Part shown: one piece after another, positions 22,680-63,732 of the stretch
Layout: each line of letters begins with the position of its first letter
Numbering within the stretch: position 1 is the first letter of the stretch
IMG/VR virus record: IMGVR_UViG_3300009184_000001
Location: 30,441 to 94,440 of that record
From: a virus
Reading direction: 5' to 3' (one strand)
Length of the DNA: 64,000 nucleotides
The notes under the pieces: model-generated
The model's database searches: none
Told to the model about the DNA's origin: nothing
What the model saw: the letters and a program-made list of their open reading frames with translations, nothing else
Made by a program: the position numbers and the translations under genes

Positions 22680-23048
22680 GCTACTGCTTAATATTAAAAG
22701 AGCTCAACCGTGTTTTTCACCTGGCGATAATATATCCTGCTTGCGTTAGGGTTGTCCCAAAATTACCGTTATCCTAACACCATCATAAATAGTGATGGCA
22801 CACTACTTATGTGAATAAGGTTTCGTGCTACCTATGGCGTGTAATTCCTATTTATAGGCATAACCCTTAGTAATACGGCTAAGGGTTATGCTCATAAAGT
22901 AATCGCTGACTATCTCCCCTTATTGCTACGGCACGGCTTATTCATTAGGGTTATCTCCCCTAATGTGTGAACTGTGCCGTAGTTAGGTGCAGTAAACGCT
23001 ATAACAACCGTTATAGTGAAACCCTTTACGCTTAGGAGCGTGATAGCG

Positions 23049-29544: not shown

Positions 29545-29651
29545 TCCCTCAAGTCTTATGTAGCACAGTCGCGTTGGCTAGTCGGCTAGCCGACACAAAC
29601 ATCTAGCGTGACTGTGCTACCTAAGCACCAATACAATACAAGGAGAAATAT

Positions 29652-37472: not shown

Positions 37473-37520
37473 AAAAAGCCCCCTGCCTGGCAATTAGCTG
37501 GGCAGGGGGCTTTATTATTT
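37473..37520. terminator. Bidirectional intrinsic terminator at the convergence point
   Basis: AAAAAGCCCCCTGCC...GGCAGGGGGCTTTATTATTT between convergent gene blocks. Confidence 0.85.
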
Positions 37521-37699: not shown

Positions 37700-39742
37700 T
37701 TATTCCTTATTGTTTTCTGATATTAGTTTTACTTCACATGCGTCAGTGGTGCAATAAGCCTCACCAACAGCATCTGCTGCCATACCAGCATACACCCCAG
37801 TAAAGTCAATTGCAAATAATTGCATTGCATACTCGGCGTATTCCTCCTCTGATATTTGAGTGTATGGCATCTGTGGGTACACATGGTTACCCATAGGGAG
37901 GAAGCTTACAGTTTTCAGTTGGCCGTCATACATATGCAAGACAGTGCCAACATCATTCTTTTCTTTTTCTGCATCGAACGTGATAGTCACAGAGACAGAG
38001 TTGTCTGACCACCAACGTTGAGCAGTAGCAGCTAGGTTCACCTTTTCATATATAGACACTTCCTTCTCACTACGCTTAGCGTCAGTCTTGATAGGGAAGA
38101 ATACTACAGATGTAGTGTCTGGTGATTCGCTAGCTGGTTCTACACGATAGTTAGCCATCTTAAACAAAGGCAACATAGGGTCATTGTTTCCAAAACGTAT
38201 AGCACGTAGGAAGAACTTACCACCACTAGGCCAGTGAACGCCTGGAGACTCTCCAGCCAAGATAGACACAGTACCAGAAGGCTTAACTGTAGTCATCTTG
38301 ATTGACTCACGAATACCTAGCCACTCTGAGTAAGAGGTGTCGTAGTCACGTACAGTCTTGTAGCCTTCATCCATCCACTCACGTAGAGCCTGCATACCTT
38401 TATTGTCAGCAAAGTTAGCCACACCAGAAACAGAGGTACCAATACGGCGGTTCCTCTGCATGATAGCATTAGTTTCTTCCCAGTGTGTTGGCAGTAGTGT
38501 CACAGTCTTAGCGTACAAGTACGCAAACTTCAATGTGCGCTTGAAATCCTCAAGGGATTCGTGGCGGTTCAAATATGTTTCCACCAGTGTACACATCTCA
38601 AAGCTTTCAAGGCTCTGCTCTGCACAAGGGTTGTAGCCAACCACACGCCTGTCTTTATTATTAGGCGCGTCAACTAGGCGTCCATATTTACGAGAGACGT
38701 CCATCCATATAACTCCAGGCTCACCGTTGCGTACAATACCATCAACGATAGGGCTGAAGTCTGTCCCAACACAAACATCTACTGAGTTGTTACTCATCCA
38801 TGCCCATCCAGGATTCTCAGGGTCATATGAATTACGGCTCGGGAACTTGTCGGCATTCTTTAGGTTTAGGAAATCCTCATCATCAATACGGCCAATCAAC
38901 AACTCAGCTGAACGGCGTACGTTACCTGAAACTACGCAAACGCCAATCATATTACCAATATCGGCAATATCAATACGTGTTAACTTTTCGCCCTTGCGAC
39001 CATAAAACATCTTTTTAATGTTTTCATGCAACTTAATCAATGGCTCTGGACCGGATGCTGTGCCACCAAATGTCTTGATAACTGTTCCATATGGCCTAAT
39101 ATCATCATAATTGAATTCATATAATGGCTGGTCTGGCTTCAAATACGAATTAATCAACGCTGTTGTTGATTCTGCCCAGCCTTCGCGGGTATCCGGAATC
39201 ACATACTCCTGAACAATTACTGGCTCGTATATATCAAACCCTTTATCTGCACCTTTATCATCAAACCCTACGCCCACTCCCAACATGCTTGCTTCCATCA
39301 GGAATGCGAACGGCTTGCCTGGATTGTTTTTGGTCATTTCATTGGTGCTGACAAACGCGCAATTCTGCAATGCTGCTGAATTCTTTTGCTCATTTACAAT
39401 ATCAGTACCCATTACCCACAACCCACGCCCTGGCGGTGTCCACTTTAAATTAAATAAACGGTCATACGCTTCTTTGGCTGACGCCGCAGCTTTTGCGTCG
39501 CTCCATGGCAAACGGTTCTGCTTTGCGTGGTCTTTCTGTAATGAATACATACCATTAATAACACGCTCACATACTTCTGCCCATGTTTCTTTGGTACCAT
39601 CTTCCTTTTTACGGGAATATGTGCGTAGGAATGTAACTTCTCCTACCGAGTTTCCGGCAACGTCTGCATAACCAAATGGTGCTTTCTTGTTCTTGTATCC
39701 TGCAACGAACTCTTCTGCTAATTTAAATGAAAAACTTGTCAT
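37700..39742 (-). CDS. nrdJ: Class II (B12-dependent, monomeric RTPR-type) ribonucleotide reductase
   Basis: RTYSR, PPGRGLW, LQNC, GNVRRSAE, NPCAEQ, TVKPSGTVS, C-terminal CTTDAC. Confidence 0.93.
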   Translation of the reverse strand: MTSFSFKLAEEFVAGYKNKKAPFGYADVAGNSVGEVTFLRTYSRKKEDGTKETWAEVCERVINGMYSLQKDHAKQNRLPWSDAKAAASAKEAYDRLFNLKWTPPGRGLWVMGTDIVNEQKNSAALQNCAFVSTNEMTKNNPGKPFAFLMEASMLGVGVGFDDKGADKGFDIYEPVIVQEYVIPDTREGWAESTTALINSYLKPDQPLYEFNYDDIRPYGTVIKTFGGTASGPEPLIKLHENIKKMFYGRKGEKLTRIDIADIGNMIGVCVVSGNVRRSAELLIGRIDDEDFLNLKNADKFPSRNSYDPENPGWAWMSNNSVDVCVGTDFSPIVDGIVRNGEPGVIWMDVSRKYGRLVDAPNNKDRRVVGYNPCAEQSLESFEMCTLVETYLNRHESLEDFKRTLKFAYLYAKTVTLLPTHWEETNAIMQRNRRIGTSVSGVANFADNKGMQALREWMDEGYKTVRDYDTSYSEWLGIRESIKMTTVKPSGTVSILAGESPGVHWPSGGKFFLRAIRFGNNDPMLPLFKMANYRVEPASESPDTTSVVFFPIKTDAKRSEKEVSIYEKVNLAATAQRWWSDNSVSVTITFDAEKEKNDVGTVLHMYDGQLKTVSFLPMGNHVYPQMPYTQISEEEYAEYAMQLFAIDFTGVYAGMAADAVGEAYCTTDACEVKLISENNKE

Positions 39743-39789
39743 ATTATTTCCTATATCTTTATTGTTGAATGTCTAGTATCTCAGGTATT

Positions 39790-39818
39790 ACACTAATACT
39801 CTTCTACTAACTTGTCAA
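39790..39818 (-). promoter_or_regulatory. SigA-type promoter upstream of nrdJ
   Basis: TTGACA-17 nt-TAGTGT. Confidence 0.6.
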
Positions 39819-39873
39819 ATAAAATGTCGACTATATCGATTCATATACTTAACATGCCTATTATCAGATAACT

Positions 39874-41343
39874 CTACTCGAGGGCATCCCGTATAATGTG
39901 TGTGGTTTGGTCTTCAGATAATGGCTTATCTAGGTTGCGTAATACGGATGCGCGGTCACCAAAAATACGTGATAATGCGCCTCCCTCTGTCTGACGACTT
40001 GCGGTAATCTGGATGAACTCTTTATTAGTTTCCAGCTCTTTCATACTACTTACTAATTTGAATAAACGGTCTATCTCCTGGGATACATTTGGGTCTGCGT
40101 ATCCACCGTTCATTTCCTCTGCGAACCGCATGAATGCTACTCTTTGCCCCTGCATTTCAACGATTGCGGTTAATAATGACTTCAATTGTTCTTTGGTTTT
40201 TACCTCTACTGGCAGGTTGAACGCACATGTGTTTGCTGGCTTAAATGCTGGGCAATTGGCGGCTACGAAACAGGTATCACACTGACGTAAACTGCTGTTA
40301 TTCGACTGTACAACTGGTACTTCTCTTAATACTTCATGGCCGTCTATATTGTCTACAATGGACTTCATTTGGTACCCAAAAACAGGCATTGGAACTACCT
40401 CATTTGGGTCTCTTTGCACTACTTCTGTGCGTTCAAGTTTCCGCTCTTCACCATCACTGTTATTAGATGACCCCACCCCTAATTCCATCAAACCACTGTA
40501 TAGGGTATCATCACTGTTATCAGATACTATACGCTTTTTATTGTTATCCATTGTCTTCTCTAACTGTAAATACGACCAGATTGCAACTTTTGTTGCTTCT
40601 AGTGTGTCATCTTCTACGAACTTTTTGAAATCTAACCCAGCTTTTTCTACAACTGATTTGTACCTTAAACGGGCCTGTGCCTTCATATTTTTAGGATAAC
40701 GTATTAGTTTAGTATTATCCCATATAATGGTCTCACCGCGTCTCATAGGGCTTATCCAGGCCAATGTAGAGGCATGGTCAAACGGTATTTGACGTAGGTT
40801 ATCTGGTTTTGCTGTTGCTAACGCCATAAACTGTGTTGAACTGGTTAGTTTTATGGAACGAACAATCGCTGCCAGGGATGTTAACGACTCTACTGCATCT
40901 CCGGGAATTGCAATATTAGCGTACTCTGTACCCCAACGCTTTAATAAATTTTGTCCATAAATCTCGTGCCAAACAACCCACATCTTTGGGTCATTTTCAA
41001 ATGCATCTCGCTGTTCTAGAATCCAATTAAATCCCATAACCTGTGAATCAAATTCAATCCAACCTTCAATACGGTCGTAATTCATTGCTATAAACTCTTC
41101 GTAATCTGCGGCGTATTCTTCTAACTCCATCTTGGACAGGTTAGCTTTGTCTGCTTGAACTGCTCCTGAATCTACCCATACTTTCATATTAGGTAGGAAA
41201 TGTTCACCAATCAAATATGGCTTAGTCTTTGGCAGCCCACGCTTTTTCAACCCCCAGTAATTTAGGATGACGTGTTCTGCCCCGCTGCGTTCCAACAATG
41301 TACGATTACTTGGAATCTCTACCCCGCCAAATATTATCTTCAT
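39874..41343 (-). CDS. TGT/DpdA-like TIM-barrel domain fused to a Cys-cluster C-terminal domain
   Basis: VWVDSGA, WIEFD, VVWH, PFD.AST.AW...R.G resemble transglycosylase-fold motifs; C-terminal CDTC..AANCP.F....C. Confidence 0.45.
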   Translation of the reverse strand: MKIIFGGVEIPSNRTLLERSGAEHVILNYWGLKKRGLPKTKPYLIGEHFLPNMKVWVDSGAVQADKANLSKMELEEYAADYEEFIAMNYDRIEGWIEFDSQVMGFNWILEQRDAFENDPKMWVVWHEIYGQNLLKRWGTEYANIAIPGDAVESLTSLAAIVRSIKLTSSTQFMALATAKPDNLRQIPFDHASTLAWISPMRRGETIIWDNTKLIRYPKNMKAQARLRYKSVVEKAGLDFKKFVEDDTLEATKVAIWSYLQLEKTMDNNKKRIVSDNSDDTLYSGLMELGVGSSNNSDGEERKLERTEVVQRDPNEVVPMPVFGYQMKSIVDNIDGHEVLREVPVVQSNNSSLRQCDTCFVAANCPAFKPANTCAFNLPVEVKTKEQLKSLLTAIVEMQGQRVAFMRFAEEMNGGYADPNVSQEIDRLFKLVSSMKELETNKEFIQITASRQTEGGALSRIFGDRASVLRNLDKPLSEDQTTHIIRDALE

Positions 41344-41825
41344 TCGAAATTTAAACCTTCTGTGCGGTTTAACCTGGCGTCTTTTGTGCGCAATTCATTT
41401 TGTTTGTTTATTGACTCTTCAATATCATTCCATGCCCTAACTGCTTTAGGTGCATCTGGGCGAAACTCTACACGGGTATAACTAGGCACGGCAAACATAA
41501 CACTAGGAATTCCCATGTTAAATGCGTACGCCCATGCCTTTGGGTTGTTTGTTATAAATAAATCTATTGCACCTTTTGCCCTGACAACGTTAATCTGACG
41601 CTCAGCTAAATCTTCGCCCTCTAGGTGAACGGATGAGTCAACGATGTTATCAAAATCAACAATCTTATTGGTGTCTAACCAATGTTGAATTTCATTCTTG
41701 GATGCTGATGCCATTAATGTTACTTGGTTCCAACTGCTTAGGGTTCCAACCATGATAACCCCAGTTGATATTGGTACGTCGTTAGTACCTCTTAATACTC
41801 CGTCTAGTTCTACTAATACATGCAT
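41340..41825 (-). CDS. HAD-fold protein with a degenerate motif I
   Basis: VLVELDGVL (DxDG with the first D replaced by E). Confidence 0.55.
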   Translation of the reverse strand: MHVLVELDGVLRGTNDVPISTGVIMVGTLSSWNQVTLMASASKNEIQHWLDTNKIVDFDNIVDSSVHLEGEDLAERQINVVRAKGAIDLFITNNPKAWAYAFNMGIPSVMFAVPSYTRVEFRPDAPKAVRAWNDIEESINKQNELRTKDARLNRTEGLNFE

Positions 41826-41935
41826 TAATCGTCCTTGTAGGTCTCTCCATAACAATCACATTTACAGTGGTCTTCGGTGCAAATTCCTTGGTATAGCTCA
41901 TGTGCGCATAAACGGCACGTGTCTGCTAATGACAT
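41825..41935 (-). CDS. 36-aa Cys-rich peptide
   Basis: Manual translation MSLADTCRLCAH...CTEDHCKCDC; TAATG overlaps at both ends. Confidence 0.55.
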   Translation of the reverse strand: MSLADTCRLCAHELYQGICTEDHCKCDCYGETYKDD

Positions 41936-42816
41936 TATTTGTTCCTGTATACTGCTGCTCTGCGAATCAGCGTTCTTGCGTCTGGTAGTTCAACTCCATA
42001 AGGGTTATTACTTTGTAGGGTAGTCATCATATGCTCCCTAACTTTTCTTAACGATTGAATTGCACCACTACGCTTACCTGCTTGCCAGCGGTAGTTATGG
42101 AAATCTCCGTAACCTTCTCCGCTTCCGGAAAATGCCATTGACCTGTTAGTATGAATCTCATTATATAGGGCATTGCCCTGTGCAGCTGCCATTGTTACGT
42201 TGTTTTCTGCATTACGTCTGATGGCATCATTTCTAGAATATTTAATATCCTGCATTGATGTTGTAAACTTGGCTTCAATACTGGCAGCGGTGCTTAAATC
42301 TTTACTGGCAATACTATCCCATTCTGGGTTGGATGGTGGTTCCTGGTTTGGGTTTGGTGTAACTACCCATTCGTCATACTTTAAATCATACGCTGCATAT
42401 GGTTTAATATCGCGGATATCTTCTGTGGCTAATGCGTAAAAGGTTAGCTCGTATCCATTCCAGTTTTCAGTGCTGCTCTGCAACTCATCGTGAAACTGCT
42501 CGTTTAACTGGTCAGAAATCTCTTTGTTTGATAAACCTGCATAATCAATATTGGCTTTACGAAACTGTACAAAATTAATTCCAATTAAACAATCCAGGTC
42601 TTTAGGTTCTCTGGCTGCGTTCCATTGGTAGGAAACTCCGGAACCAGCTAGATATGGGTGTGTCCACAACTGTGCTTGCTGGTATTTACGACCAATAAAA
42701 TCGTTTAATATGCTTATAATGCCTGAACGCACCCACGACTTTATTGCCCGTCCACTAAAAAGTACTGGGTCTAATTCGGTCGCAGGTGCGCTGAAGTATG
42801 ATGTAGGATTGTTCAT
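41935..42816 (-). CDS. Pol-beta superfamily nucleotidyltransferase-like protein
   Basis: LAGSGVSYQW......DLDCLI (GS..DxD) plus YE..FY and Y.L..DEW. Confidence 0.7.
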   Translation of the reverse strand: MNNPTSYFSAPATELDPVLFSGRAIKSWVRSGIISILNDFIGRKYQQAQLWTHPYLAGSGVSYQWNAAREPKDLDCLIGINFVQFRKANIDYAGLSNKEISDQLNEQFHDELQSSTENWNGYELTFYALATEDIRDIKPYAAYDLKYDEWVVTPNPNQEPPSNPEWDSIASKDLSTAASIEAKFTTSMQDIKYSRNDAIRRNAENNVTMAAAQGNALYNEIHTNRSMAFSGSGEGYGDFHNYRWQAGKRSGAIQSLRKVREHMMTTLQSNNPYGVELPDARTLIRRAAVYRNK

Positions 42817-42825
42817 ATACCTAGT

Positions 42826-43134
42826 TTATGCTGTTACTTCAGGGCTTTCTGGCTTAATCTTACGTTCTGCAAGTTTTTCGCTAATTACCTCAGATACTGT
42901 TGGCTCTGATGGTGGTGTTAGCAACTGTACAATAGTCGCTGCTAGACGTTCTACCAAACGCTGGTCATCTACTTCTTTAATTAGTACATGTGCCCACTGG
43001 TAAACATCAGATACTGACGCATCTACTTGGGTTTCTGGCGCATCTTCTGGTTTCTTTAGGTCAACAGAAAATGTGTCATCTTGGTAAATGTTAACTACGA
43101 ATTGTGACTTGATTTCTTTAGTTGTTTGTTCCAT
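42826..43134 (-). CDS. Hypothetical protein
   Basis: AAGGA RBS. Confidence 0.65.
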   Translation of the reverse strand: MEQTTKEIKSQFVVNIYQDDTFSVDLKKPEDAPETQVDASVSDVYQWAHVLIKEVDDQRLVERLAATIVQLLTPPSEPTVSEVISEKLAERKIKPESPEVTA

Positions 43135-43145
43135 TTTATTCCTTC

Positions 43146-43697
43146 TTAATATAGGCCAAGGATTTGGCGTTTACGTTCTAACACTTTACCATGATACGGG
43201 CAGAAATGGCAAGTGTATACTTGGGGCCCTTGCAAATGTTCTGGCTTAGGCATTCCCAATTCTTTGCGTTCCATTGCTGTATCCGGCAATAAACGCTTTT
43301 TAGGTGTCTCATAATCTTCACAATTAGTTGTGACTTTATTATGTGCTATCCAGCAGCTCATAGCCTCATCAGCAAATGTCATTTTTGTTTCATAAAATGC
43401 TTTGTTAGGGTCTAATTCATCTAGGCCCTTTGAACCACCATCTGCTAGTTGTGCTAGGATAGCTTTCTTTTCTTCTGGATTGGCCCATGACTTTACTGGT
43501 ACTTTAAACAGTTTACCTACGTGTGGGTCACCCGATGGAAACTTGTGTTTTTCTATCGAAATCTCTAATAGGTAATCAAAATTAGATGGGCCCTCGTAGT
43601 CTGGTAATTCTTCCCAGGTTTCGCATACCATACAACGTAGCAGACGAATGATTGGTCCATCAATCGGCTTGGACCCAATTACTGGTTTATTTGACAT
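43146..43697 (-). CDS. Hypothetical metal-binding protein
   Basis: CMVC, C..H...C, CHFCP. Confidence 0.7.
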   Translation of the reverse strand: MSNKPVIGSKPIDGPIIRLLRCMVCETWEELPDYEGPSNFDYLLEISIEKHKFPSGDPHVGKLFKVPVKSWANPEEKKAILAQLADGGSKGLDELDPNKAFYETKMTFADEAMSCWIAHNKVTTNCEDYETPKKRLLPDTAMERKELGMPKPEHLQGPQVYTCHFCPYHGKVLERKRQILGLY

Positions 43698-43863
43698 TGT
43701 TCTCCTTAGGTTCCATATAATAACCCGGTCCCATCGAAGGCATGGCTATATGGCCATTACTACGTACATACACGTATGCACCTACATGTGGGTTTTTGTA
43801 CTCAGGGTTAACTTCCCAGTCGTATGGGAGTTGTTTTAATTCATCCGGAATATCTTGTTCCAT
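43687..43863 (-). CDS. Small hypothetical protein, 58 aa
   Basis: Manual translation MEQDIPDELKQLP...; AAGGAG RBS. Confidence 0.55.
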   Translation of the reverse strand: MEQDIPDELKQLPYDWEVNPEYKNPHVGAYVYVRSNGHIAMPSMGPGYYMEPKENNVK

Positions 43864-43923
43864 TTTATGCTCCTTATATTTATACTTTTATACTACTACA
43901 TATTTTTATTTATGCAACTAAAA

Positions 43924-45417
43924 TTAACGAATAGTCTTAGTGTCTAACGAAGGTCCTTCAGTATCCGAGTTATATCCTTCAGTGTTTCCCAGTCCACCCA
44001 ATAGTGGGTTAGTGGTGTCCTGTGTCGCTCTAATTGATTCTTCTCTAGAACGCTTTTCTTCTTCTGGGTCAGACAGGTCAACATATGAGATATTTCCTAC
44101 CTTAGTTTTAAGTGCCCGTATCTTTTTATTAATTTGGTGAACTTGCAGTAATCTACGCTGTACTGGGTCGCCATTTTTGTCAAGTTTTGGATTGCCATTA
44201 GCGTCTGTAAGTGTGACACTTGGTACCAACCCTTTTTTGTGGGCTGCGGCAAAAGCTTTTTGCTTATCGTGGTACTCTTTGAAAACATCAACAATCTTGT
44301 CTGGTTGACTCATGATGTCTTTATACGCGGCATCTTCTTTATCAGGATATAACGCAGGAATAATCTTATTTTTAAGAGTATCTCTAGTCCAGTTACTTTT
44401 TTCGGTATCGCCTTTACGCCACCTTGACTCTTTGTTACCACCTGTTGCATAGGCATCGTAAAGCTTTCTTCCATGCTTATACAATGGGTGGTTAGTGTTA
44501 TCTATATAGATTGTGTTAGCCGGGTCTGCTGGGTACGTAATAGTACCTGTTACTGGGGTAGCTTTTACTGTAGGTTTTGAAGGCTGTGCAGGAATACTTT
44601 CTTCAGCTGGTTTAATGACTGGCTTTGGCCTCATAGCTTCATAAGATGAATTATCTGCATCAATTTTTGCCTGTCTGTCTGACATCATCTGCTTGTGTGC
44701 AGTCATACCTGGCCATGGAACACCTGGGAACGCTTGTCTGTGCACCTGTTTTGCAACACCAATTGCCATAGTGTTAGTCTGTTCTTCAGCATCTGCTGCT
44801 CTTAGTCGTGAAAGCTCGGTACGGTTAGCAACTTGTTGTGGGGTACTATAAGGAGTAGAAACGCGTCTCCCAGGAATTGCGTAAACTTCCTTACTCATAA
44901 CCGGTTCACCACGCTGTACAGACGCAGGAATTATTTCCCCGGTTCTTGTATCTTTTTGTTCAGGTACAATATTAATTTTTGAGGCAACTTGGCGAGGTGC
45001 AAATGATACTTCCTGTGACTCAACACTACCTGATGTTCCAAACGCACTATTAAATGCGGCATCTCTTCTGCCTCTAAAAGTTCTTGTAGGAACTACCGCA
45101 CCAGTTTGTTGCGCCTGTGTATTGCGCATGGCAAATTTTCTAGATAAATCAGACGGAGTATAACTAATATCGCCTGCTTCAGTTGTTTGAAGGTCAACTG
45201 CGTTTGATATTAAAGACTTTTCTGGCTTGTAGTTGGGTCCAAGAGCTTTTGCTTCAGACTCCTGCTGACTAGCAACGGCTCTAATTTGTGCTATCTTATC
45301 TGCGTTTTCTGGGTTGCTGCCTAAAGTATTTTCTAATGGTGCTGGGGTAAATTTCTTATTTAATGAGGGTGCTTTACGCGGACGCTTAGATTCTCCACCC
45401 GGAGTTTTTTCTGCCAT
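43924..45417 (-). CDS. Large low-complexity hypothetical protein (possible internal virion protein)
   Basis: 497-aa ORF with no recognisable motif. Confidence 0.7.
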   Translation of the reverse strand: MAEKTPGGESKRPRKAPSLNKKFTPAPLENTLGSNPENADKIAQIRAVASQQESEAKALGPNYKPEKSLISNAVDLQTTEAGDISYTPSDLSRKFAMRNTQAQQTGAVVPTRTFRGRRDAAFNSAFGTSGSVESQEVSFAPRQVASKINIVPEQKDTRTGEIIPASVQRGEPVMSKEVYAIPGRRVSTPYSTPQQVANRTELSRLRAADAEEQTNTMAIGVAKQVHRQAFPGVPWPGMTAHKQMMSDRQAKIDADNSSYEAMRPKPVIKPAEESIPAQPSKPTVKATPVTGTITYPADPANTIYIDNTNHPLYKHGRKLYDAYATGGNKESRWRKGDTEKSNWTRDTLKNKIIPALYPDKEDAAYKDIMSQPDKIVDVFKEYHDKQKAFAAAHKKGLVPSVTLTDANGNPKLDKNGDPVQRRLLQVHQINKKIRALKTKVGNISYVDLSDPEEEKRSREESIRATQDTTNPLLGGLGNTEGYNSDTEGPSLDTKTIR

Positions 45418-45437
45418 TATAATACTTTCTTTATTAA

Positions 45438-45665
45438 CTATTTACCAGGGTTTACTTTAGACGCAGCAGGTGCCTCTGAAGTGGCGAACCCGTATCCAAA
45501 GAATGGGTGCAGTGTTTGGCGGTTGTCTAGAGTTTTTTCGTGACCATCGTGGTCCATAACCTCAGTGTCAGGGCGAACCTTACGGTACTTACCATCAGTT
45601 GCACCTTCGTCTAGGCTGGCATTCATTGAACGGCTAGTATTTACGGCCATTATTTCTTCCTTCAT
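45438..45665 (-). CDS. Hypothetical protein
   Basis: Probable start MAVN. Confidence 0.6.
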   Translation of the reverse strand: MKEEIMAVNTSRSMNASLDEGATDGKYRKVRPDTEVMDHDGHEKTLDNRQTLHPFFGYGFATSEAPAASKVNPGK

Positions 45666-46020
45666 TCATGTCATTCGCAAAGTTATTTACGAATTCCTGT
45701 TGGTGCTCACCCATCTGGGATTGCAAAATATCTGTAGTTAAAGGGTAGTCTACCCTTTGACCCATTTCATCTCTTATATCAAACGATTTTGCTGCTTGAT
45801 TTAAGTGGTGCCCTGCGTCTGATAGTTCTAGCATAGCAGATGCGCTGTATGGTTGCTTATTATGCTCATTTTCAGAGGACTTAATAGCAGACATAGCATT
45901 CTTTAAATGTCCTGTTATGTTTTTTACATTTTCGTAACCCAAATTACGGCCATGTTCGCTTGCGTAATCCAACATATGGAAATACAAGTTTTTGGCTTTA
46001 TCAAATGACGGGTGAGACAT
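45634..46020 (-). CDS. Hypothetical helical protein
   Basis: 128-aa ORF. Confidence 0.6.
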   Translation of the reverse strand: MSHPSFDKAKNLYFHMLDYASEHGRNLGYENVKNITGHLKNAMSAIKSSENEHNKQPYSASAMLELSDAGHHLNQAAKSFDIRDEMGQRVDYPLTTDILQSQMGEHQQEFVNNFANDMNEGRNNGRKY

Positions 46021-46223
46021 TATACCATTTTTCTATTAATACGGTCCTGACGACGCTTTTCAGCGCAATCAGGGCAAATACCTAGTTTAGTGTACATATA
46101 TTCTACTGGATTCATAATTATACCACATGTTGGGCACGGGTGAGAACCTCGATAATTTACTGCATTCTTTGCTATTTGAAACGCTTGAAGTTCTAGCGTT
46201 AGAGAGCCATCTCCATCATCCAT
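46020..46223 (-). CDS. Small zinc-finger protein
   Basis: CPTC ... CPDC. Confidence 0.65.
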   Translation of the reverse strand: MDDGDGSLTLELQAFQIAKNAVNYRGSHPCPTCGIIMNPVEYMYTKLGICPDCAEKRRQDRINRKMV

Positions 46224-48043
46224 TATTTACCTGCACCACTACCATCTTCAAAATGAACTTTTAATCCACGTTTAGCAGCTACTGCTGATTCAACTGCAGG
46301 AGTAAGTTCCGTATCTGCAGCAACAGGAGCGCCAGATGTCATACGTCGTCTATTAGCTGTTGCAGGTGTTGCAGGAGTAATAGCCTCTTGTTGTTCCGCA
46401 GTATCTAGAGTTGCGCCAGTTTTTCTTGCGTTTTTAAGCTGTACTGCTTCTCTTTCAGGGGAAATTGTATCCGATTTGTCCGCAAAGTCCGTTGCTTTAG
46501 GATAAAATGCTTTTAAAGTTCCTTGGGTTGGAGATATACCTCTGCCCTTGTCTTTAAGGGTTGCTAAGTCCTCAGCAAAAATTCTTTGAGTAACAGGGCT
46601 TTTTAAGTCCAGTTTGTAATCTGTCCGTGCAGCCAATACCTCCGTCTTTACTTGAGGCTTTTTAGTTTTTAAACTAGGTAGCTCGCTAAAAGGGGATAGT
46701 TTAATAGGAGATTTTGTTGTTTTTGTTGATTCTATATACCCATGTGGGTCTAACGCAGGAGCGCTAGATTCAAAATCTTCTGGTCTTGCACCTTTATTAT
46801 TTGCTAACCAATGGGTTTTTACTTGGTTAAGAACGTGCCATTGTTCTGGATTCTGATGAGCAAGTGAGCCTACCCAAGATTTTTTAACGTAACTTTTTTT
46901 AGCATTTGCTGCAGAATCTGCATTACGTGCTTCATCAGCTTCAAAGTGTGGCTTTATAAGCTCTCTTGGGGCAGTAATAGAGTCATACCTGGTTATTCCT
47001 GTATCTTGTGCTTCTGAAGGACCTTGCCAATCTCCTGAGTCTGGTACTGCAAAAGTTGCACCAGTAGTAATAGCCTTTGACCTATTTCTAGAGTCTTTTT
47101 GGGCTGCAGCTCGTTCTGTTTTTCGTTGAGCAATTGCTTCTTTAGCTTCTGGAGTTAGAGGTACATATCTACCTAGGGCTTTAGTAATATAACTAGGCTG
47201 AAGTTCAGTATCATATTCTCTATTTAAAATGTTCTTAACTTCCGATGCAGCTTCTGGGTGTACTTTTCTAGCACCTACACCCATAGTTAAAGCATGGTTG
47301 ACATACCCATTTGTTGCTGCGGTTAACTTTGCCATTGAATCATAGTTAATTATAAATGGGCTTTTTTTGTCACCGTATCTAGAATCTTTAAACACTTCGT
47401 TGTACTCGCTTGAAGGTTTTCCTAGAGCTTCAGTGCTGTTAACGTGGCGAAGAGCAGCCGCTACACTATCAGAAGCATTAGTGAAATGTTCTGCAGCACT
47501 AATGTGGTCACCTGCATGGTGAGCTAACCAAGACTGAGTTAAACTCTTTTTAGCTTGAGACATTATAGTTCTGGCAGGAGTCATGCTATCGATTGTAGCA
47601 TTTGAAACTGACTTTGCTGTAGTGCTAGTTCTTGGGAGCTCATTTACTGTAACTCCAAGTTCCTTAGCTCTTAGCTCTTGCTCTTCTTTACGTGCTTTAT
47701 CTGAATCATAGGTAAGTTGACTAACTCTGTTATCAAAGTCACCAATAATACTAGCTAAAGCATTGTGGTAAGAAGTATTTTCACTAATTTTATTAGGGGC
47801 TTGTTCTTGAGGAACTAGTAACTCAGACTCTGAAGTAACTTTGTTACCTTCTAAAGAGTTAGAAAAATTAGATACGTTTTCTTTAAAGGAGGTTCTTTCC
47901 GCCTCAACCTTGGCCGTAGCAACTTTTTCTCTAACCTTTTTAGCGGTTTCTTTTTTAGACTCTGCTTTTTTAGTCTTTTTTGCGTTTGTTTTAGCTGCAA
48001 GGGCCTTGATAGCTGCTGGGGATAAATAGTTTCTTTCAGCCAT
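46223..48043 (-). CDS. Large low-complexity hypothetical protein
   Basis: 606-aa ORF, translationally coupled. Confidence 0.7.
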   Translation of the reverse strand: MAERNYLSPAAIKALAAKTNAKKTKKAESKKETAKKVREKVATAKVEAERTSFKENVSNFSNSLEGNKVTSESELLVPQEQAPNKISENTSYHNALASIIGDFDNRVSQLTYDSDKARKEEQELRAKELGVTVNELPRTSTTAKSVSNATIDSMTPARTIMSQAKKSLTQSWLAHHAGDHISAAEHFTNASDSVAAALRHVNSTEALGKPSSEYNEVFKDSRYGDKKSPFIINYDSMAKLTAATNGYVNHALTMGVGARKVHPEAASEVKNILNREYDTELQPSYITKALGRYVPLTPEAKEAIAQRKTERAAAQKDSRNRSKAITTGATFAVPDSGDWQGPSEAQDTGITRYDSITAPRELIKPHFEADEARNADSAANAKKSYVKKSWVGSLAHQNPEQWHVLNQVKTHWLANNKGARPEDFESSAPALDPHGYIESTKTTKSPIKLSPFSELPSLKTKKPQVKTEVLAARTDYKLDLKSPVTQRIFAEDLATLKDKGRGISPTQGTLKAFYPKATDFADKSDTISPEREAVQLKNARKTGATLDTAEQQEAITPATPATANRRRMTSGAPVAADTELTPAVESAVAAKRGLKVHFEDGSGAGK

Positions 48044-49830
48044 TATCTACTCCTTTTTTTCGGGTTACGGGCTGGAGTGTTTTCCTCGATAAGTTGAGAG
48101 GCAGCACGTTCAGCAGAAATTCTAAGAGTTTTTTCGTTTTCTAGTTCGTTAATTCTGGATTTAATAGCCCTTTCAGCTTCAATTTGCCTGTTGCTAATAG
48201 CAGCACGCTTTCTCTTAGGAAGAGTGTCCCAGTTTCTTGGCTTTTCTGTTGCAGGTTTTGCGGGCTTAGTAGCTTGTGGAAGAGGCTGTACAGGAGTGCG
48301 AACTGTTTGAACCATAGTGTGAGCAGGGGAAGAGCTTAGTTCTTTCCAAGTCATTGGCTTATTGTTTTCATCCATGTGAGGAACTTCGTAGCCATTTTTG
48401 TCAATAACTTTTAAACCAATGTGTTTTCCAAATTCAACAAATTTTCTGTCTTCAGCTTTAGGGAAAGGAATCTCGTTTCCTTTGTGTATAAGCTTCCTGG
48501 TTCCTGGGATAATTTTTCCAGTAACAGGGTCAGTATCATTTGCCACAAAAGCTCCTTGAGGAGCAGGGTTTGGGTGTACCGCAACCATAAGTCTATTAGT
48601 CTTCACAACATTTTCTGGGCTTCCAGTAACACTGGACTGTACTGCAGCACCTGACCCACCAAAACCAATTGCATCAAAAGGACGACCCATAGATGTGCTT
48701 ACGGCAGTTTGTGGACCTGCGTTTGTATCGCTCCACTCTTGTGAGCCTTTAACAGTTCCTGCTTGAGAGAACTTTAACATTTTTCTGACTACAGAAGGGT
48801 TTAGTCCTGCGTAAAGACCTCTAATAGATGGGTCCTTAGACATCATTCCTAGTCTTATTCTTGCTAGTTTTTCAAAAGTGTCTCGACTGTTTTCTACTTG
48901 AGACATCTCTCCTCGGCCAATTTTTAGGGTCTTGTTTAATTTACCTGCAGATTTTGCCATAGGGAATTCTACTAATGAATGAGCTCTGTCTTCATCAGTT
49001 ACACCAGTACCAATAGGTGGTTGTCCAGCTTTGGTAATATCAAATACTGAACTATGCATGACTCTGTTTGCGGTGTGCAGTGCGTCAGTTGCAGTACGCA
49101 TGTGGTTGTTAGCTTCTTCAACATTGTTTGACGCTTTAGCTTTTTTAGCTAAACCTAAATAGTATTCTGCTGTAGCTAAATGCGCTCCAGCATTTGCATG
49201 GCTGTCATAAGCTGGGTGGTCAACAAGCTCATTTCCTTTGCCGTCTGTAAGTTCGGCCCCAATATTGTCATGGTGGGTGTTTAATATAACTAAATTAGCT
49301 GCAGCATTTTGAAGTATTTGTCTTTGGCTTCTAGTAGCTTTTCCTGTTCCAGGTCCTTGCGGCATATTTTTGCGAAGCTTTGCTTCATATTCGCTACCTG
49401 CACCTGTACCAGATGATACTGGGCGTCTTTCTTTAACAAACTTCTCTGGGCGTACTGGTTGGTTAAACGCTTCTACTTTTTCATTTGCTATTGGGTTACC
49501 CTGTGCGTCGTGAGTTTCACCAATAATTGCTCCACCAAGACCAAGGAATCTGTTTCTTTTTCTTTGGGCATCTGCTGCGTGTGAGCCGGGATACTTTTCT
49601 TTAACTTCTCTAGGACTAACTGGGTCAAACTCGTCAGAAAATTTAGCTGGCTCTAGTTTTTTAGATACTGGGTTAAGAATTAAAGGACGCTTGACTCCCT
49701 CTTCGTCTACAATGTGTTGTAGTCCTGCAGCAGGAGCAGATTCTGGTGCTACACTATTTGGTTCACCGGCTACAGGAGCTCCTCCTGCACCACCGTGACC
49801 ATTACTAAATTCGCCTAAATTACCTGCCAT
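48043..49830 (-). CDS. Large low-complexity hypothetical protein
   Basis: 595-aa ORF, translationally coupled. Confidence 0.7.
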   Translation of the reverse strand: MAGNLGEFSNGHGGAGGAPVAGEPNSVAPESAPAAGLQHIVDEEGVKRPLILNPVSKKLEPAKFSDEFDPVSPREVKEKYPGSHAADAQRKRNRFLGLGGAIIGETHDAQGNPIANEKVEAFNQPVRPEKFVKERRPVSSGTGAGSEYEAKLRKNMPQGPGTGKATRSQRQILQNAAANLVILNTHHDNIGAELTDGKGNELVDHPAYDSHANAGAHLATAEYYLGLAKKAKASNNVEEANNHMRTATDALHTANRVMHSSVFDITKAGQPPIGTGVTDEDRAHSLVEFPMAKSAGKLNKTLKIGRGEMSQVENSRDTFEKLARIRLGMMSKDPSIRGLYAGLNPSVVRKMLKFSQAGTVKGSQEWSDTNAGPQTAVSTSMGRPFDAIGFGGSGAAVQSSVTGSPENVVKTNRLMVAVHPNPAPQGAFVANDTDPVTGKIIPGTRKLIHKGNEIPFPKAEDRKFVEFGKHIGLKVIDKNGYEVPHMDENNKPMTWKELSSSPAHTMVQTVRTPVQPLPQATKPAKPATEKPRNWDTLPKRKRAAISNRQIEAERAIKSRINELENEKTLRISAERAASQLIEENTPARNPKKRSR

Positions 49831-61220: not shown

Positions 61221-62771
61221 CTATAGTAGTTTGTCTGTTAAGAAGTTTATCAGACTTCCAACAGTTAAGTCAACTCCACCTTTAGAGTTGATGTTAGCTC
61301 CATCCAGGATTGCTCCTGCAACAGCGCCCTTCTGCTTAAGCATGTCATACTGACGCTGCTCAATTGAACCATTAACTAGTATATCTTGAATTGTAATTGT
61401 TGTCCAATCGCTTGACGTACGGTTTATTCTACCGTTACGTTGTACAGAAAGTCCAGAAGACCAGGGTTGGTCGTAGTTTACTAATAAGTTAGCTTGAGGC
61501 AAATCCACACCGTAACCACCAGCATCAGAGCTGACCAAAACGCGGATATCAGGTGTTGTTTGGAATCTAACCTTGGCGTCTTCTTTTTGCTTTGCATTCA
61601 TCTCTCCTGTATATGGTACTGCTTTAATATTATTTTTTTCTAGCTCTTTAACTATAGAATCCACGGAGTCTAGATAAGAAGAAAACACTACGGCTTTGTA
61701 TGAGTCCGCAATATTTAAATGTTCTTTAAGATAAGTAACAGTATAGTCCAGCTTGTTATTCCTGGTCAAGCCAGTTAATAGCTCTCCTAAAGAATGTATG
61801 TACATACTTCCACCGGTTTGTTTTTCAAAGTTAGCCGCACTCTTTACTAAAGAACTAGGGCTAGAACACAGCATTCGTAACGCTGAAATTCTAGACATTA
61901 TTTGCCCCCGCAGTTCATTTGCTGGGTCACCTGCATCGTAAGTCTGACCGTAGTGTGCTGCCAGATTAAAGTTGGCACCAAACATTTCTCGAGCATCCAT
62001 TAAAAGACCATACAAGTCTTCTGATATATAAGTGTATATTTTTGCTGCAGTACTATCTAGATTGACTAGCATAGGTTCTCGGTACACCGCATCAGGAAGG
62101 TACGGCTTTACATCCTCGTCCTTCTGAGACTTGCGTACAGAATGTTTAACCAGTATGTCATGTAACGTTTGCAGGTTTCGGTATCGCTGAACTCCACCAA
62201 AATGGTTTCGTACAATAAATGTCTTGTCAAACAAATCAAATCTACCCAAAACTTTAGGGTCAATGAACTGCATAATAGAGTATATTTCTTCAGGCTTGCC
62301 ATTCTCAATTGGAGTACCCGTCAGTGCAAATCTAATAGGAATGTTTTTAGAAAGGTCTTTAACCTTTTTAGCTCGCTTAGCTCGGAAGCCTTTAATAGCT
62401 GTTGCTTCATCGCAAACTATAGCCCCAAAATCAAAGTTCTTTAGGTAGTCCCAGTCGTTTACTACCTGCTCATAGTTCATAATAATATAATTATGCTCTT
62501 CAGCAGTTGCGTATTGTTTAAATCGTTGAGTTGGTGTGCCATCAATAACAACAGCTGTGGAGTCGCTAAACTTTTCAATCTCTTTTTGCCACTGGTATTT
62601 AAGGCTAGCAAGGCAAAGTACAAGAGTAAGTTTAGGTTTGAGGGCTTCAATAGCCGCAATAGTCATAGGAGTTTTACCTAGACCCATTTCATAAGCAACT
62701 AGTATGCGTTGCTGAGAAACCATTTTCTTAACGGCTTCAGTTTGATACGGTTTCAGTGTCCCTTTGAACAT
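61221..62771 (-). CDS. SNF2-family helicase
   Basis: LKPYQ, EMGLGKT, VCDEA, LTGTPIEN, GGYGVDL, QRNGRI.R. Confidence 0.92.
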   Translation of the reverse strand: MFKGTLKPYQTEAVKKMVSQQRILVAYEMGLGKTPMTIAAIEALKPKLTLVLCLASLKYQWQKEIEKFSDSTAVVIDGTPTQRFKQYATAEEHNYIIMNYEQVVNDWDYLKNFDFGAIVCDEATAIKGFRAKRAKKVKDLSKNIPIRFALTGTPIENGKPEEIYSIMQFIDPKVLGRFDLFDKTFIVRNHFGGVQRYRNLQTLHDILVKHSVRKSQKDEDVKPYLPDAVYREPMLVNLDSTAAKIYTYISEDLYGLLMDAREMFGANFNLAAHYGQTYDAGDPANELRGQIMSRISALRMLCSSPSSLVKSAANFEKQTGGSMYIHSLGELLTGLTRNNKLDYTVTYLKEHLNIADSYKAVVFSSYLDSVDSIVKELEKNNIKAVPYTGEMNAKQKEDAKVRFQTTPDIRVLVSSDAGGYGVDLPQANLLVNYDQPWSSGLSVQRNGRINRTSSDWTTITIQDILVNGSIEQRQYDMLKQKGAVAGAILDGANINSKGGVDLTVGSLINFLTDKLL

Positions 62772-63732
62772 AAGACGATTCTCCAAGTATTGACGATTTA
62801 GCGTTGGCAATACCCCACGCAATCTCATCATCTGTTAAATCACCAGGGTCTTTTGCTCCACTACTAGGATAGCTGAAAAAGAACAGATTTAAACCGTATT
62901 TACGGGCAAGCTTGCGTAGCTCCTCTGATGCTTTGTACCCTGCAGCATCTTGGTCAAAGGCAGCAATAATCTTGTCAGAACGCCTAAGAAGCTTGACCTG
63001 CTCTTCTGATATAGAAGAACCACAAATAGCCACGGCACCAGCAATGCCTGCACTAGCTATACGTGCACAATCAAGTGGAGATTCTACAACAATAACTACA
63101 TCATCACGCTGATTCTCTGCACCAAACAAAGTTTTAGATTTCTGTAGACCACCAGGACGGTTGAAGAATGTGCGATGTACAGTACCTTTTTCTTGCCATC
63201 CCATCAACTTGTTATTCTCTGGCTCACGCAGTGGAAGAACCCAAGCTGCTTTTTTCTCATCCCAAAGAATACCATACTTCTCTGCAACCTCAGGAGTAAT
63301 ATTACGCTTGGCTAGCTCTTCTAATGGTGGTGCAACAAACACAGCAAGACGAGCCTCTGACATTGCCAACGGCTTAGGCATGGCCTCAATCCGATTAGGC
63401 AATGACTGAATCATCTCAAGCAACTTCTCAATAGGAATCTCAGAAACCTGAGACAACCATAAACGAGCAGCTACATAGTCATATGCGTAGTCCTTGCCCC
63501 AGACATCCTTGTAGAACTCATTAACGTCACAGACTAACTGGACTAAGTTACCCTTGTATCCACACGAGAAGCAGATGTGCATACCAGTCTCAGTATTAAT
63601 CCACCAAGATGGAGAGTTATCTACACGACCGGTACGAGCATGATGCATAGGGCATAAAGCGTGAGACTCTACACCCCGCTCATCATGCTCAATACCAAGA
63701 GCATCAAGAACTAAAAGAATATCAACTAGCAT
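62737..63732 (-). CDS. DnaG-type primase (CHC2 zinc finger plus TOPRIM)
   Basis: CPMH...PS......CFSCG.KG; VVESPLD; AFDQDAAG; KDPGD. Confidence 0.9.
   Translation of the reverse strand: MLVDILLVLDALGIEHDERGVESHALCPMHHARTGRVDNSPSWWINTETGMHICFSCGYKGNLVQLVCDVNEFYKDVWGKDYAYDYVAARLWLSQVSEIPIEKLLEMIQSLPNRIEAMPKPLAMSEARLAVFVAPPLEELAKRNITPEVAEKYGILWDEKKAAWVLPLREPENNKLMGWQEKGTVHRTFFNRPGGLQKSKTLFGAENQRDDVVIVVESPLDCARIASAGIAGAVAICGSSISEEQVKLLRRSDKIIAAFDQDAAGYKASEELRKLARKYGLNLFFFSYPSSGAKDPGDLTDDEIAWGIANAKSSILGESSYVQRDTETVSN

Follow-up and report, generated by a model that had tools for sequence, protein, structure and literature searches.

Why should a phage keep one strand of one short part of its genome almost free of a three-letter word that is common in the rest of the same molecule? 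The question is posed by an uncultured 94-kb lake phage (IMG/VR record IMGVR_UViG_3300009184_000001), of which positions 30,441 to 94,440 form the 64,000-nt window analysed here; coordinates are those of the window. The first-pass annotation had reported that plus-strand AG falls from 48 occurrences in 38041-38520 to 5 in 38881-39600, all five of them CAG, and that AAG and GAG (together RAG) stay rare to about 43.9 kb. Its AG counts are exact, and our recount gives 14 RAG in 38785-43900 (2.7/kb), only 5 of which lie within 38785-42000, whereas the remainder of the 94,440-bp genome has 20-60/kb. The poorest 5.1-kb interval holds 15 RAG where the genome median is 157 and the minimum outside this region 120, and of all RAG-free gaps in the genome the seven longest (334-866 nt) fall inside the zone, the longest elsewhere being 320 nt. 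The effect is confined to one strand, as had been claimed, since plus-strand CTY is present in the zone at a normal 39-53/kb; and because every gene of the zone is on the minus strand, the strand without 5'-CTY-3' is the sense strand. To the right, RAG rises to 16/kb in 43900-46200 and to 28/kb beyond, but this is no smooth gradient, since in part it reflects conserved genes that are purged lying among variable genes that are not: in this minus-strand shoulder (43900..46200), partly purged conserved small genes stand among weakly purged variable genes, with observed/expected ratios per ORF of 0.73 (g43924), 0.54 (g45438), 0.63 (g45634) and 0.96 (g46020).

The genes affected, all on the minus strand, are varied in kind. 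The tract ends within nrdJ (37700..39742), which encodes a class II ribonucleotide reductase (Pfam RNR_Alpha, RNR-II_ins_dom and Ribonuc_red_lgC) and beyond which, where two gene blocks converge, lies a bidirectional terminator hairpin (37475..37513; a perfect 13-bp inverted repeat, GC-rich and flanked by runs of T and A). The purge crosses the intergenic gap at 39743..39873, there being no RAG between 39648 and 39880; the gap holds a TTGACA-type promoter-like site upstream of nrdJ and the palindrome TTATCTGATAA (39861-39871, minus strand), and TATCTGATAACA follows the stop codon in the majority of relatives, desert-bearing or not. The adjoining gene (39874..41343) encodes a 489-residue TGT/DpdA-like transglycosylase (phrog_887, E 1.8e-58) and is among the most strongly purged, with 3 CTY against 39.2 expected (z -7.5); residues 1-270 of its AF2 model form a confident TIM barrel for which every top Foldseek match is a tRNA-guanine transglycosylase (E ~1e-5), and Cys355, 358, 364 and 373 are invariant. 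Beside it lie a 171-aa gene kept in all relatives (41340..41855; 1 CTY against 15.2 expected, z -4.4) and a conserved 293-aa gene (41935..42816; 4 against 24.4) whose product, with invariant G58-S59 ... D73-L-D75, is possibly a Pol-beta-type nucleotidyltransferase: in an AF2 model of pLDDT 70 its best Foldseek matches are ANT and CD-NTase nucleotidyltransferases, none of them significant (E >= 0.03). Next come a 102-aa gene that is variable among relatives, and missing in L008, L010 and others, but purged here (42826..43134; 1 against 7.7), and a conserved Cys/His-rich gene of 183 aa (43146..43697; 2 against 14.0; invariant C22, C25, H51, C115, C126, C163 and C166).

Could this be nothing more than unusual composition? 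Transferred-segment codon usage could resemble what is seen, as NCT falls from 44% to 16% of Ser, Pro, Thr and Ala codons, and mutational bias or an assembly artefact would likewise require no special feature. When the proteins are re-coded with genome-wide codon usage, however, the deep tract should contain about 128 sense-strand CTY but has 14, and the same test finds depletion in no other gene, on either strand, of the whole genome. When synonymous codons are instead shuffled within the zone, so that its own codon usage is kept, words spanning codon junctions remain 6-7 times too rare (NCT/Y, 3 against 18.7, z -4.8; NNC/TY, 5 against 34.3, z -6.3). All three codon phases are depleted, 5-30 fold, and CTY has been removed by every synonymous route (CTY to TTR or CTR; NCT to NCA, NCG or NCC; NNC/T to NNT, NNA or NNG), which argues for selection on the word itself rather than for one mutation type. 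The depletion thus outlasts control for protein sequence and codon position, and the earlier contention that the constraint acts at the nucleotide level, beyond codon bias or palindrome avoidance, is borne out by its independence of frame and its restriction to one strand. Nor does it track a donor segment, as comparison of nrdJ with close relatives revealed neither a recombination breakpoint nor discordance between its 5' and 3' parts, and as CTY was lost by all the synonymous routes open to it. The purge recurs in some 30 independent contigs, which come from many samples, and Logan contigs from two runs match the window without differences. Junction words, mixed mutational routes and the loci of relatives together refute an explanation by codon usage, mutational bias or artefact, to which we leave next to no probability.

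In those roughly 30 related contigs the purge is found in the same place and always on the sense strand. Synonymous sites among the relatives that carry it are near saturation (synonymous codon identity ~0.5), and the first 930 nt of nrdJ contain 0-5 CTY in desert genomes but 23-55 in desert-free or weak-desert alleles; retention of the purge across such divergence means that selection still maintains it. Site-by-site purifying selection, then, keeps the sense strand of a conserved block almost free of CTY. The block consists of g43146, g41935, g41340 and the TGT-like gene, with g45438 and g46020 to varying degrees and about 1 kb of co-oriented nrdJ, and the whole purged tract amounts to 5-8 kb of 94 kb. 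Some phages with these genes have no desert: the block is found at 62-70% identity in close relatives without it and at 42-57% in a wide desert-free phage group, and the desert is patchy even between close relatives (L010 and L011; L013 and L022/L008). In relatives g45438 and g46020 have ratios of 0-0.3 while adjacent variable genes, which differ in codon usage (AGA-rich, GC3 0.22-0.29), have 0.9-1.5; upstream, the tract is broken by CTY-rich variable genes of 1.5-3 kb, on the far side of which isolated small conserved genes again show the purge.

The downstream border is of a different kind. In the window the steep 3' edge falls at 38757..38905 (minus strand; nrdJ nt ~840-985), with CTR words reappearing at 38809-38905 and CTY words further left, from 38784 and 38757 on, so that the purge is limited to the first ~940 nt of nrdJ, and NCT makes up 5 of 75 relevant codons in the 5' part of that gene and 51 of 95 in the 3' part. 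An edge at similar positions (nt 930-1140) is seen in nrdJ alleles that are not one another's closest relatives, and the purge runs 0.9-1.5 kb into co-oriented nrdJ in WIN, L019, L007, L005, L002, L006, L201, L202, L204 and L207. In at least 8 loci without nrdJ it ends no more than about 100 nt from the stop codon, and the convergent genes that follow have, on the same DNA strand, 50-70 CTY/kb (observed/expected 1.0-2.0). We found no conserved nucleotide element or RNA structure at the nrdJ edge, no repeat or clustering of contig ends that would mark it and no mirror-image purge across it; a genome end or origin was sought there and none was demonstrated, the terminal repeats of 62-127 bp being assembly overlaps. 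Purge depth increases toward the 3' end of the tract and is greatest in the 5' part of nrdJ, outside the block genes. The words themselves are lost in a set order, KCTY > MCTY > DCTA > DCTG, with CCTR spared, and in plus-strand form the neighbouring base has a strong effect (RAGM, 0 against ~72 expected; RAGK, 14 against ~71). Whatever reads CTY is therefore blind to frame, acts on a single strand and ranks its words in a fixed order.

It is tempting to think that the strand being read is the transcript, and we tentatively put forward as our leading explanation, at rather less than an even chance, a purge driven by a single-strand endonuclease, probably an RNase, that cuts D-C-U-Y. Such an enzyme, specific for single-stranded RNA in infected cells, would most likely belong to the host, as a defence or toxin-type RNase that only some hosts possess, or else be a shut-off RNase of the phage. 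Each site in the block mRNA would cost expression of genes needed while the nuclease is active, and sites would consequently be lost through whichever synonymous change is available. Sites just past the last gene would matter too where the transcript continues into nrdJ, probably because cleavage there would create a 3' end open to decay that could proceed into the block; with a terminator and convergent genes downstream the purge would go no further than the operon, and variable genes that are dispensable and newly acquired would escape it. In support of this reading, the sense strand is the purged one at every desert locus, continuation downstream is only into co-oriented DNA and stops before convergent genes, purging goes gene by gene (g45438 and g46020 low beside unpurged variable genes), all phases are depleted, and removal is by any synonymous route under ongoing selection. 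Patchiness accords with a reader that varies with the host or with the accessory gene set, and the ranking of words and the depth of the purge look like a product of affinity and exposure. Against it, an edge within nrdJ leaves that gene's own message unprotected, and as the deepest purge is in a part of nrdJ that belongs to no block gene, the idea of a 3' trailer is ad hoc; L019 shows no comparable trailer behind g45438. In L204 the TGT-like gene is followed by a strong terminator, yet the purge still extends into nrdJ; strong terminators occur in 1 of 9 deep and 4 of 8 moderate deserts, an association of extension with terminator loss that does not reach significance. The variable genes may simply be too young to have been purged, which would rescue a positional model at the DNA level, and the co-directional layout makes the sense strand also the lagging-strand template, so that choice of strand cannot separate RNA from DNA. 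mRNA interferases with 3-nt targets are well known (MazF at ACA, MqsR at GCU, ChpBK at ACY), but we know of no CUY-specific RNase. Messages resistant to such enzymes, as ACA-less ones escape MazF, are alike in involving a frame-blind three-letter word in single-stranded RNA on the sense strand only; they are, however, single genes in cells or engineered constructs, whereas in the phage a natural multi-gene block is affected, its words are graded in rank and the purge stops partway through a downstream gene.

Readers of DNA have to be weighed against this. The first-pass annotation proposed a priming-free tract. In the form weighed here, the minus strand, as lagging-strand template or 3' tail, would have lost the sites where a DnaG/T7-type primase starts at CTY and more weakly at CTA and CTG; several unprimed kb beside a fixed point would yield long ssDNA for recombination-dependent replication or one long Okazaki fragment. 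The form of the word fits, as initiation trinucleotides of this class include d(CTA), d(TTA), d(CTG) and d(GTC), with a variable 'cryptic' 3' base and primers starting pppAG (PMC2978363), and the neighbour effect would be that of the base templating the third primer nucleotide. The phage has a 331-aa zinc-finger/TOPRIM primase (62737..63732, minus strand; phrog_47, E 1.4e-40), a helicase, SSB, a UvsX-like recombinase and a Cas4-like exonuclease, and a steep intragenic edge with deepening toward it fits exposure declining from a fixed point. What does not hold up is covariation: orthologous primases occur in desert-bearing and desert-free relatives alike, with an identical zinc-finger core and no discriminating residue. 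The CTY-rich variable genes also break the tract, nothing marks the edge as an end or origin, and where nrdJ is missing the purge reaches precisely as far as the operon does, sparing the following 1 kb of that DNA strand. We regard priming avoidance as unlikely, if far from negligible, and to our knowledge no desert of primase sites has been described. It is also conceivable, though quite improbable even with both forms taken jointly, that ssDNA is read by something else, either a host nuclease or deaminase acting on the non-template strand during transcription or in R-loops, or a helicase-nuclease that loads onto a DNA end close to the edge and cleaves at CTY. Strand specificity, frame independence, word hierarchy and patchiness would be explained as well as by reading of RNA, and the coding strand of the zone has positive GC skew (plus-strand skew -0.13 to -0.15), but the requisite DNA end was not demonstrated and, since the genes of one operon share transcription, the gene-wise mosaic is unexpected unless the variable genes are young; we know of no nuclease or deaminase with a CTY preference.

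The other earlier suggestion, that RAG is a modification target, would have a TGT/DpdA-like enzyme exchange the G of RAG in DNA whose block template strand must stay unmodified. Such an enzyme is indeed encoded among the most deeply purged genes, and its known phage counterparts act at motifs of 2-3 nt (GA in iggy, PMC10484667; GA and GGC in CAjan, PMC7544227), although no motif-free self region has been reported in those phages. Here the enzyme occurs with or without the desert, the genome lacks QueC, QueD and FolE of the preQ0 pathway, Pfam TGT does not match the protein, and a RAG target finds no support; moreover, if modification blocked transcription, sites upstream would be the costliest, yet the purge deepens downstream and past the stop codon, and other early genes are unpurged. 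We consider this decidedly improbable. Avoidance of type I-E CRISPR PAMs, which would protect against targeting, or against primed uptake of spacers along the one-directional path of Cas3, seems less promising still, and we rate it as very improbable. Of the four E. coli interference PAMs, CTT and CTC on the target strand, which read AAG and GAG on its complement, make up two (PMC3764190), patchiness would suit a host defence, and PAM or restriction-site depletion, in which selection likewise removes short words read by a host enzyme, is documented in phages (PMC4246573, PMC12174588). The remaining two PAMs are not avoided, however, CAT (plus-strand ATG) being doubled in the zone and CCT spared; a cut anywhere kills the phage, so that a local purge of one strand brings no clear gain; the other side of the edge has no mirror image; and the fourth base matters, which PAM reading does not predict. 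Documented depletions affect both strands of whole genomes. Closer in its locality is the motif avoidance of the first-injected region of Autographiviridae (PMC12455610) and of T5 first-step-transfer DNA, which is also tied to one segment carrying probable counter-defence or takeover genes, but that involves longer restriction sites in double-stranded DNA at a known genome end.

Whichever molecule is read, the selective removal of CTY from the message strand of one conserved block calls for some single-strand reader in the infected cell, and so something there reads CTT and CTC on one strand only.

The 94,440-bp record, of which the window is 30441-94440, assembles as a circle, and every gene between about 64 kb and 37.7 kb lies on the minus strand. 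The upstream part of this minus-strand block encodes primase, helicase (61221-62831), SSB, a family A DNA polymerase, a UvsX-like recombinase and a Cas4-like exonuclease; after the replication genes come a set of genes without assigned function, the gene for a 489-aa TGT/DpdA-like protein and nrdJ (37700-39742), and a strong hairpin terminator (37475-37513) marks the junction where it runs up against the small genes of a convergent plus-strand block. It is here that the first-pass annotation had described a desert of RAG on the plus strand, and its manual counts of AG proved exact (48 in 38041-38520 and five in 38881-39600, all five of them CAG). Between 38785 and 43900, AAG and GAG together occur 14 times (2.7/kb), rising to 16/kb in 43.9-46.2 kb and to 28/kb beyond, compared with 20-60/kb elsewhere in the genome. 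The seven longest RAG-free gaps of the whole genome all lie in this tract, which is the only affected region in the 94,440 bp. As had also been claimed, CTT and CTC remain normal on the plus strand (39-53/kb), so the constraint is strand-specific: it is the sense strand that has been purged of 5'-CTY-3'. The desert is a genuine feature and departs strongly from chance.

The idea that ordinary codon bias is not responsible held up when the proteins of the tract were re-coded with genome-wide codon usage, which predicts about 128 CTY on the sense strand where 14 are observed. For the TGT-like gene alone the figures are 3 observed and 39.2 expected (z -7.5); elsewhere in the genome no gene shows depletion in this test, and the antisense strand of the purged genes is normal (z +0.6 to +1.6). 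Even when both the protein and the tract's own codon usage were fixed in a synonymous shuffle, words spanning codon junctions remained depleted (NCT|Y, 3 against 18.7 expected; NNC|TY, 5 against 34.3), and all three codon phases are affected. At positions where desert-bearing and desert-free orthologues share their amino acids, CTY was seen to have been removed by every available synonymous route, with CTY becoming TTG, TTA, CTG or CTA, NCT becoming NCG, NCA or NCC, and NNC|T becoming NNT, NNA or NNG, which argues for selection on the word and against a single mutational process. A horizontally acquired island of foreign codon usage can be rejected, since the depletion survives these controls and there is no breakpoint at the edge of the desert: in comparisons with close relatives, nrdJ has a uniform identity to the related loci L023 and L024 over its whole length, and its 5' and 3' parts share the same nearest neighbours, so that a donor segment, raised earlier as the competing explanation, fails. 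Restriction-site avoidance, already doubted in the first-pass annotation, is likewise rejected, as the loss affects one strand only (RAG at 2.7/kb against CTY at 39-53/kb, both on the plus strand) and one region only, and is not genome-wide. We also considered Rho (YC dinucleotides), mycobacterial RNase E (RN|CNU), Shine-Dalgarno-like words acting through antisense RNA and the mycobacterial topoisomerase I site; the trinucleotide table, in which YC shows just a slight reduction, CAU a doubling and YAGG no loss, disagrees with them.

The purge is graded. On the plus strand of the window RAGM is absent against about 72 expected and RAGK occurs 14 times against about 71 expected, while TAG and CAG drop by half in the core and YAGG is unaffected or enriched. 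When five deep-desert genomes are pooled, the fall toward the edge within nrdJ begins about 7 kb upstream for KCTY and slightly later for MCTY, at about 4.5 kb for CTA and at 1-2 kb for CTG, and all depleted words return inside one 500-nt bin at the edge. This pooled picture is modified by a gene-by-gene view, in which the purge is a mosaic. Conserved genes are the ones purged: g43146, g41935, g41340 (171 aa) and the TGT-like gene, and in many genomes also the small genes g45438 and g46020, with observed/expected ratios of 0-0.5 that deepen toward the TGT-like gene. The variable genes between them are near 1.0 (0.9-1.5 inside the wider tract); they use AGA-rich arginine codons and have a GC3 of 0.22-0.29, compared with CGN codons and a GC3 of 0.34-0.46 in the core genes, and from this composition they may be recent arrivals. 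Three large variable minus-strand genes (43924-45417, 46223-48043 and 48043-49830), whose counterparts in the closest relatives are only 27-35% identical, constitute a gene-turnover hot spot inside the replication operon. The purged genes also contain long antisense ORFs on the plus strand, of the type seen at 39285-39671 (up to 128 aa, and 230 aa in locus L010), which are most likely not real genes but a side effect of the disappearance of TAG and other stops containing AG from that strand.

Searches of IMG/VR and JGI metagenome contigs yielded about 180 loci with the same gene order, and in about 30 of them the same words are purged at the same place. In four further complete or near-complete genomes the desert is again the sole region of its kind. 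No region of this kind exists anywhere in close relatives, the complete genomes G006 and G007 included, and the desert is also missing from a broad range of more distant phages that share the block of conserved genes. Mapped on a phylogeny of the TGT-like protein, the desert has a patchy distribution: it is present in L010 but missing from the sister locus L011, and L013 lacks it within a purged group. Among desert genomes the synonymous codon identity of nrdJ is only about 0.5, and still the first 930 nt of the gene contain 0-5 CTY, as opposed to 23-55 in desert-free or weak-desert alleles. That each lineage has retained so few CTY at this level of synonymous identity indicates that selection is acting now. 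GenBank phages include no close relatives, with matches to nrdJ alone (66-69%); at the level of assembled contigs, one freshwater run contains 92% of the stretch and other runs small shares, and none of the runs listed is of RNA. In codons 60-120 of nrdJ (39380-39560), codon identity to L023 reaches 97%, against 63-75% elsewhere, which points to a short and recent recombination tract between two desert-bearing phages.

How the purge ends depends on what lies downstream. In at least eight loci that lack nrdJ it stops within about 100 nt of the TGT-like stop codon, at the terminators of the convergent junction, and the same DNA strand then carries 50-70 CTY/kb through the neighbouring genes of opposite orientation. 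Where a deep desert is followed by a co-oriented nrdJ, the purge runs 0.9-1.5 kb into that gene and then ends steeply; the sharp boundary reported inside nrdJ is borne out in the window, with CTR returning at 38809-38905 and CTY from 38784. Alleles of nrdJ whose 5' part is purged are not mutual closest relatives. We found no conserved nucleotide element at the edge within nrdJ and no origin-like repeats, iterons or unusual hairpins in 37.4-47.5 kb; the RNA fold at the edge has a z of 0.0, Rfam has no match in the tract, and scans for promoters and terminators were at chance level except for the 37475-37513 hairpin. Avoidance in a first-injected region, as in T5 FST, would place the tract against a physical genome end. 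In the assembled contigs, ends do not cluster at the edge, the direct terminal repeats of 62, 123 and 127 bp lie at non-homologous places and are therefore assembly overlaps and not true genome ends, and contig depth, available as one figure per assembled contig, shows no step confined to the tract. No opposite-strand gene occurs inside the tract in 27 loci. A strong terminator after the TGT-like gene is lacking in eight of nine deep deserts and present in four of eight moderate ones, and L026 and L028, which have a moderate desert and such a terminator, show no extension into nrdJ; L204 is an exception, with a strong terminator and an extension all the same. That this terminator switches the extension is suggestive only. 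In the relatives L008, L010 and L003 (around 11540-11600), the motif CCRACACAAACA is found, in either orientation, at the GC-rich hairpin terminators where the two gene blocks converge.

The 489-aa protein (39874-41343, minus strand; phrog_887) is a TGT/DpdA-like TIM barrel: all its top Foldseek hits are TGT (E about 1e-5), although Pfam TGT does not match it. The first 270 residues are modelled with confidence and the C-terminal half poorly, and four cysteines (C355, C358, C364 and C373) are invariant; its substrate may be DNA or tRNA. The other genes of the block had no hits in Pfam, NCBIfam, PHROGs or PDB profiles. The 293-aa protein (g41935; 41935-42816, minus strand), which has 1393 metagenomic homologues, all annotated as 'hypothetical', has an alpha/beta N-terminal domain as well as an invariant GS...DLD motif; its best fold matches, which are non-significant, are to aminoglycoside and CD-NTase nucleotidyltransferases and to an MNT antitoxin, and it may be a Pol-beta-type nucleotidyltransferase. 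The 183-aa protein (g43146; 43146-43697, minus strand) probably binds zinc, to judge from its invariant residues C22, C25, H51, C115, C126, C163 and C166. Directly after the TGT-like stop codon lies the palindrome-containing motif TATCTGATAACA (39859-39873, with a second copy at 40515-40526), found at this place in most relatives, with or without a desert; CATGAATC...GGAC often comes next, and the motif may serve in regulation or processing.

Whatever imposes the purge sees one strand, ignores reading frame, grades its words as D-C-T-Y > CTA > CTG and exacts a cost per site. Because the sense strand is at once the message and, in a co-directional layout, the lagging-strand template, readings at the level of RNA and of DNA both fit the strand. 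We tentatively favour a purge linked to the transcript, without regarding it as probable in absolute terms: it follows co-oriented DNA downstream and never enters convergent genes, it proceeds gene by gene, it reaches small conserved genes that CTY-rich ones cut off from the main tract, and its patchy distribution points to a reader that varies with the host or with the accessory gene set and not to conserved replication machinery. RNases of the toxin or shut-off kind with 3-nt targets exist, and a toxin-type endoribonuclease of the host or a shut-off endoribonuclease of a phage would, on this proposal, cut at D-C-U-Y; cuts up to about 1 kb downstream would expose the block to 3'-to-5' decay, a supposition that is the sole account of the extension into nrdJ. 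The restriction to the sense strand and the independence of frame are what an interferase-resistant transcript should show, and the purge matches the operon end in at least eight nrdJ-less loci and, in its mosaic, the limits of genes. Against the transcript stand the edge inside nrdJ, which matches no gene limit, the deepest purge lying in the 5' part of that gene, and L204. The first-pass annotation had instead proposed that the phage's own primase (62737-63732, minus strand, 331 aa) recognises CTY and that the sites have been removed to leave a primase-free tract, a suggestion we consider rather unlikely. The word does have the d(CTN) form of DnaG-class initiation sites, which include d(CTA) and d(CTG) and have a variable 3' base (PMC2978363), its 5' neighbour matters, and the phage encodes a full toolkit for recombination and replication. 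However, among 13 aligned orthologues no residue of the zinc-binding region of the primase separates desert-bearing from desert-free genomes, the tract is interrupted by the CTY-rich variable genes, the purge halts at the strand switch with the convergent neighbours unpurged, and an end or origin could not be demonstrated from the assembled contigs.

Two other readings find less favour still. The annotation's second proposal, that base-modification enzymes encoded in the zone act on RAG and that the zone must stay unmodified, was right in that a TGT-fold enzyme is real and encoded within the tract, but we judge it improbable: the gene and its block also occur in desert-free relatives, so the enzyme does not track the motif-free tract; searches of the complete genome for the 7-deazaguanine precursor genes QueC, QueD and FolE (PF06508, PF01242 and PF01227) gave no match; and an obstacle on the template strand would make upstream sites costly, not downstream ones. 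Hardly likely at all is avoidance of type I-E PAMs. On the target strand the interference set of Escherichia coli includes CTT, CTC, CAT and CCT (PMC3764190), and CTT and CTC are indeed reduced to 0.11 and 0.08 of the reference, but CAT is doubled (2.0) and CCT spared (0.92), no reason emerges for a local, one-stranded purge, and the mirror-image purge left of the edge that CRISPR priming predicts is absent. The interpretation first offered is supported in part, and the mechanism may be either an RNA-level or a DNA-level reader of single strands.

Two small basic proteins of 63 and 92 aa, encoded side by side among the virion genes (genome positions 22231-22962), are present in eight genomes, all eight with a deep or intermediate desert, and in none of 12 desert-free genomes with a completeness of 90% or more; the desert genome G004 (89% complete) is without them. 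The association is confounded by phylogeny, and a link between this pair and the cause of the desert is a lead and not a finding, as is the resemblance of the 63-aa protein to DUF5872. In the surrounding region (genome 20.7-23.4 kb; 1700-4400 of L200), a series of small basic proteins with a very high lysine content is encoded next to a small HNH-like gene. An AAA+ ATPase, which PHROGs profiles identify as CobS/MoxR-like, and its 645-aa partner (28210-31589, plus strand) occur in the desert-bearing genomes G011, G001, G002 and G003; G006 has distant matches only, and G007 and G008 have none.

Single genes of the ACA-less type make up a third group of known word avoidance, from which the present purge differs in spanning a multi-gene block. 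The other two groups are the genome-wide, two-stranded avoidance of restriction sites and PAMs by phages (PMC4246573, PMC12174588), in contrast to which this purge is local, one-stranded, frame-blind and graded, and avoidance tied to a known first-injected end, which concerns longer double-strand motifs (PMC12455610) and not a 3-nt word on one strand. A 3-nt word on one strand, a purge spanning several genes, a graded hierarchy and upkeep across lineages saturated at silent sites come together in none of the known groups, and we class the purge as motif avoidance distinct from them. As it has been kept in lineages whose silent sites are randomised, an enzyme reading three to four bases on one strand must impose a measurable cost per site. 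The footprint alone gives the specificity of that reader, D-C-T/U-Y, where the final position tolerates A first and G next, and it marks the genes that matter. It is a possible, if doubtful, explanation that these phages keep the messages of a counter-defence block (the TGT-like protein, the possible nucleotidyltransferase and the zinc protein) free of the word cut by a single-strand nuclease of the host; the alternative to such escape is a programmed primase-free tract that makes a long single-stranded DNA gap. If nuclease escape is the explanation, local one-strand word deserts would be a general footprint both of the specificity of defence nucleases and of the phage genes that must outlast them, and our results suggest that one-strand footprints could be mined for new defence nucleases or replication signals.
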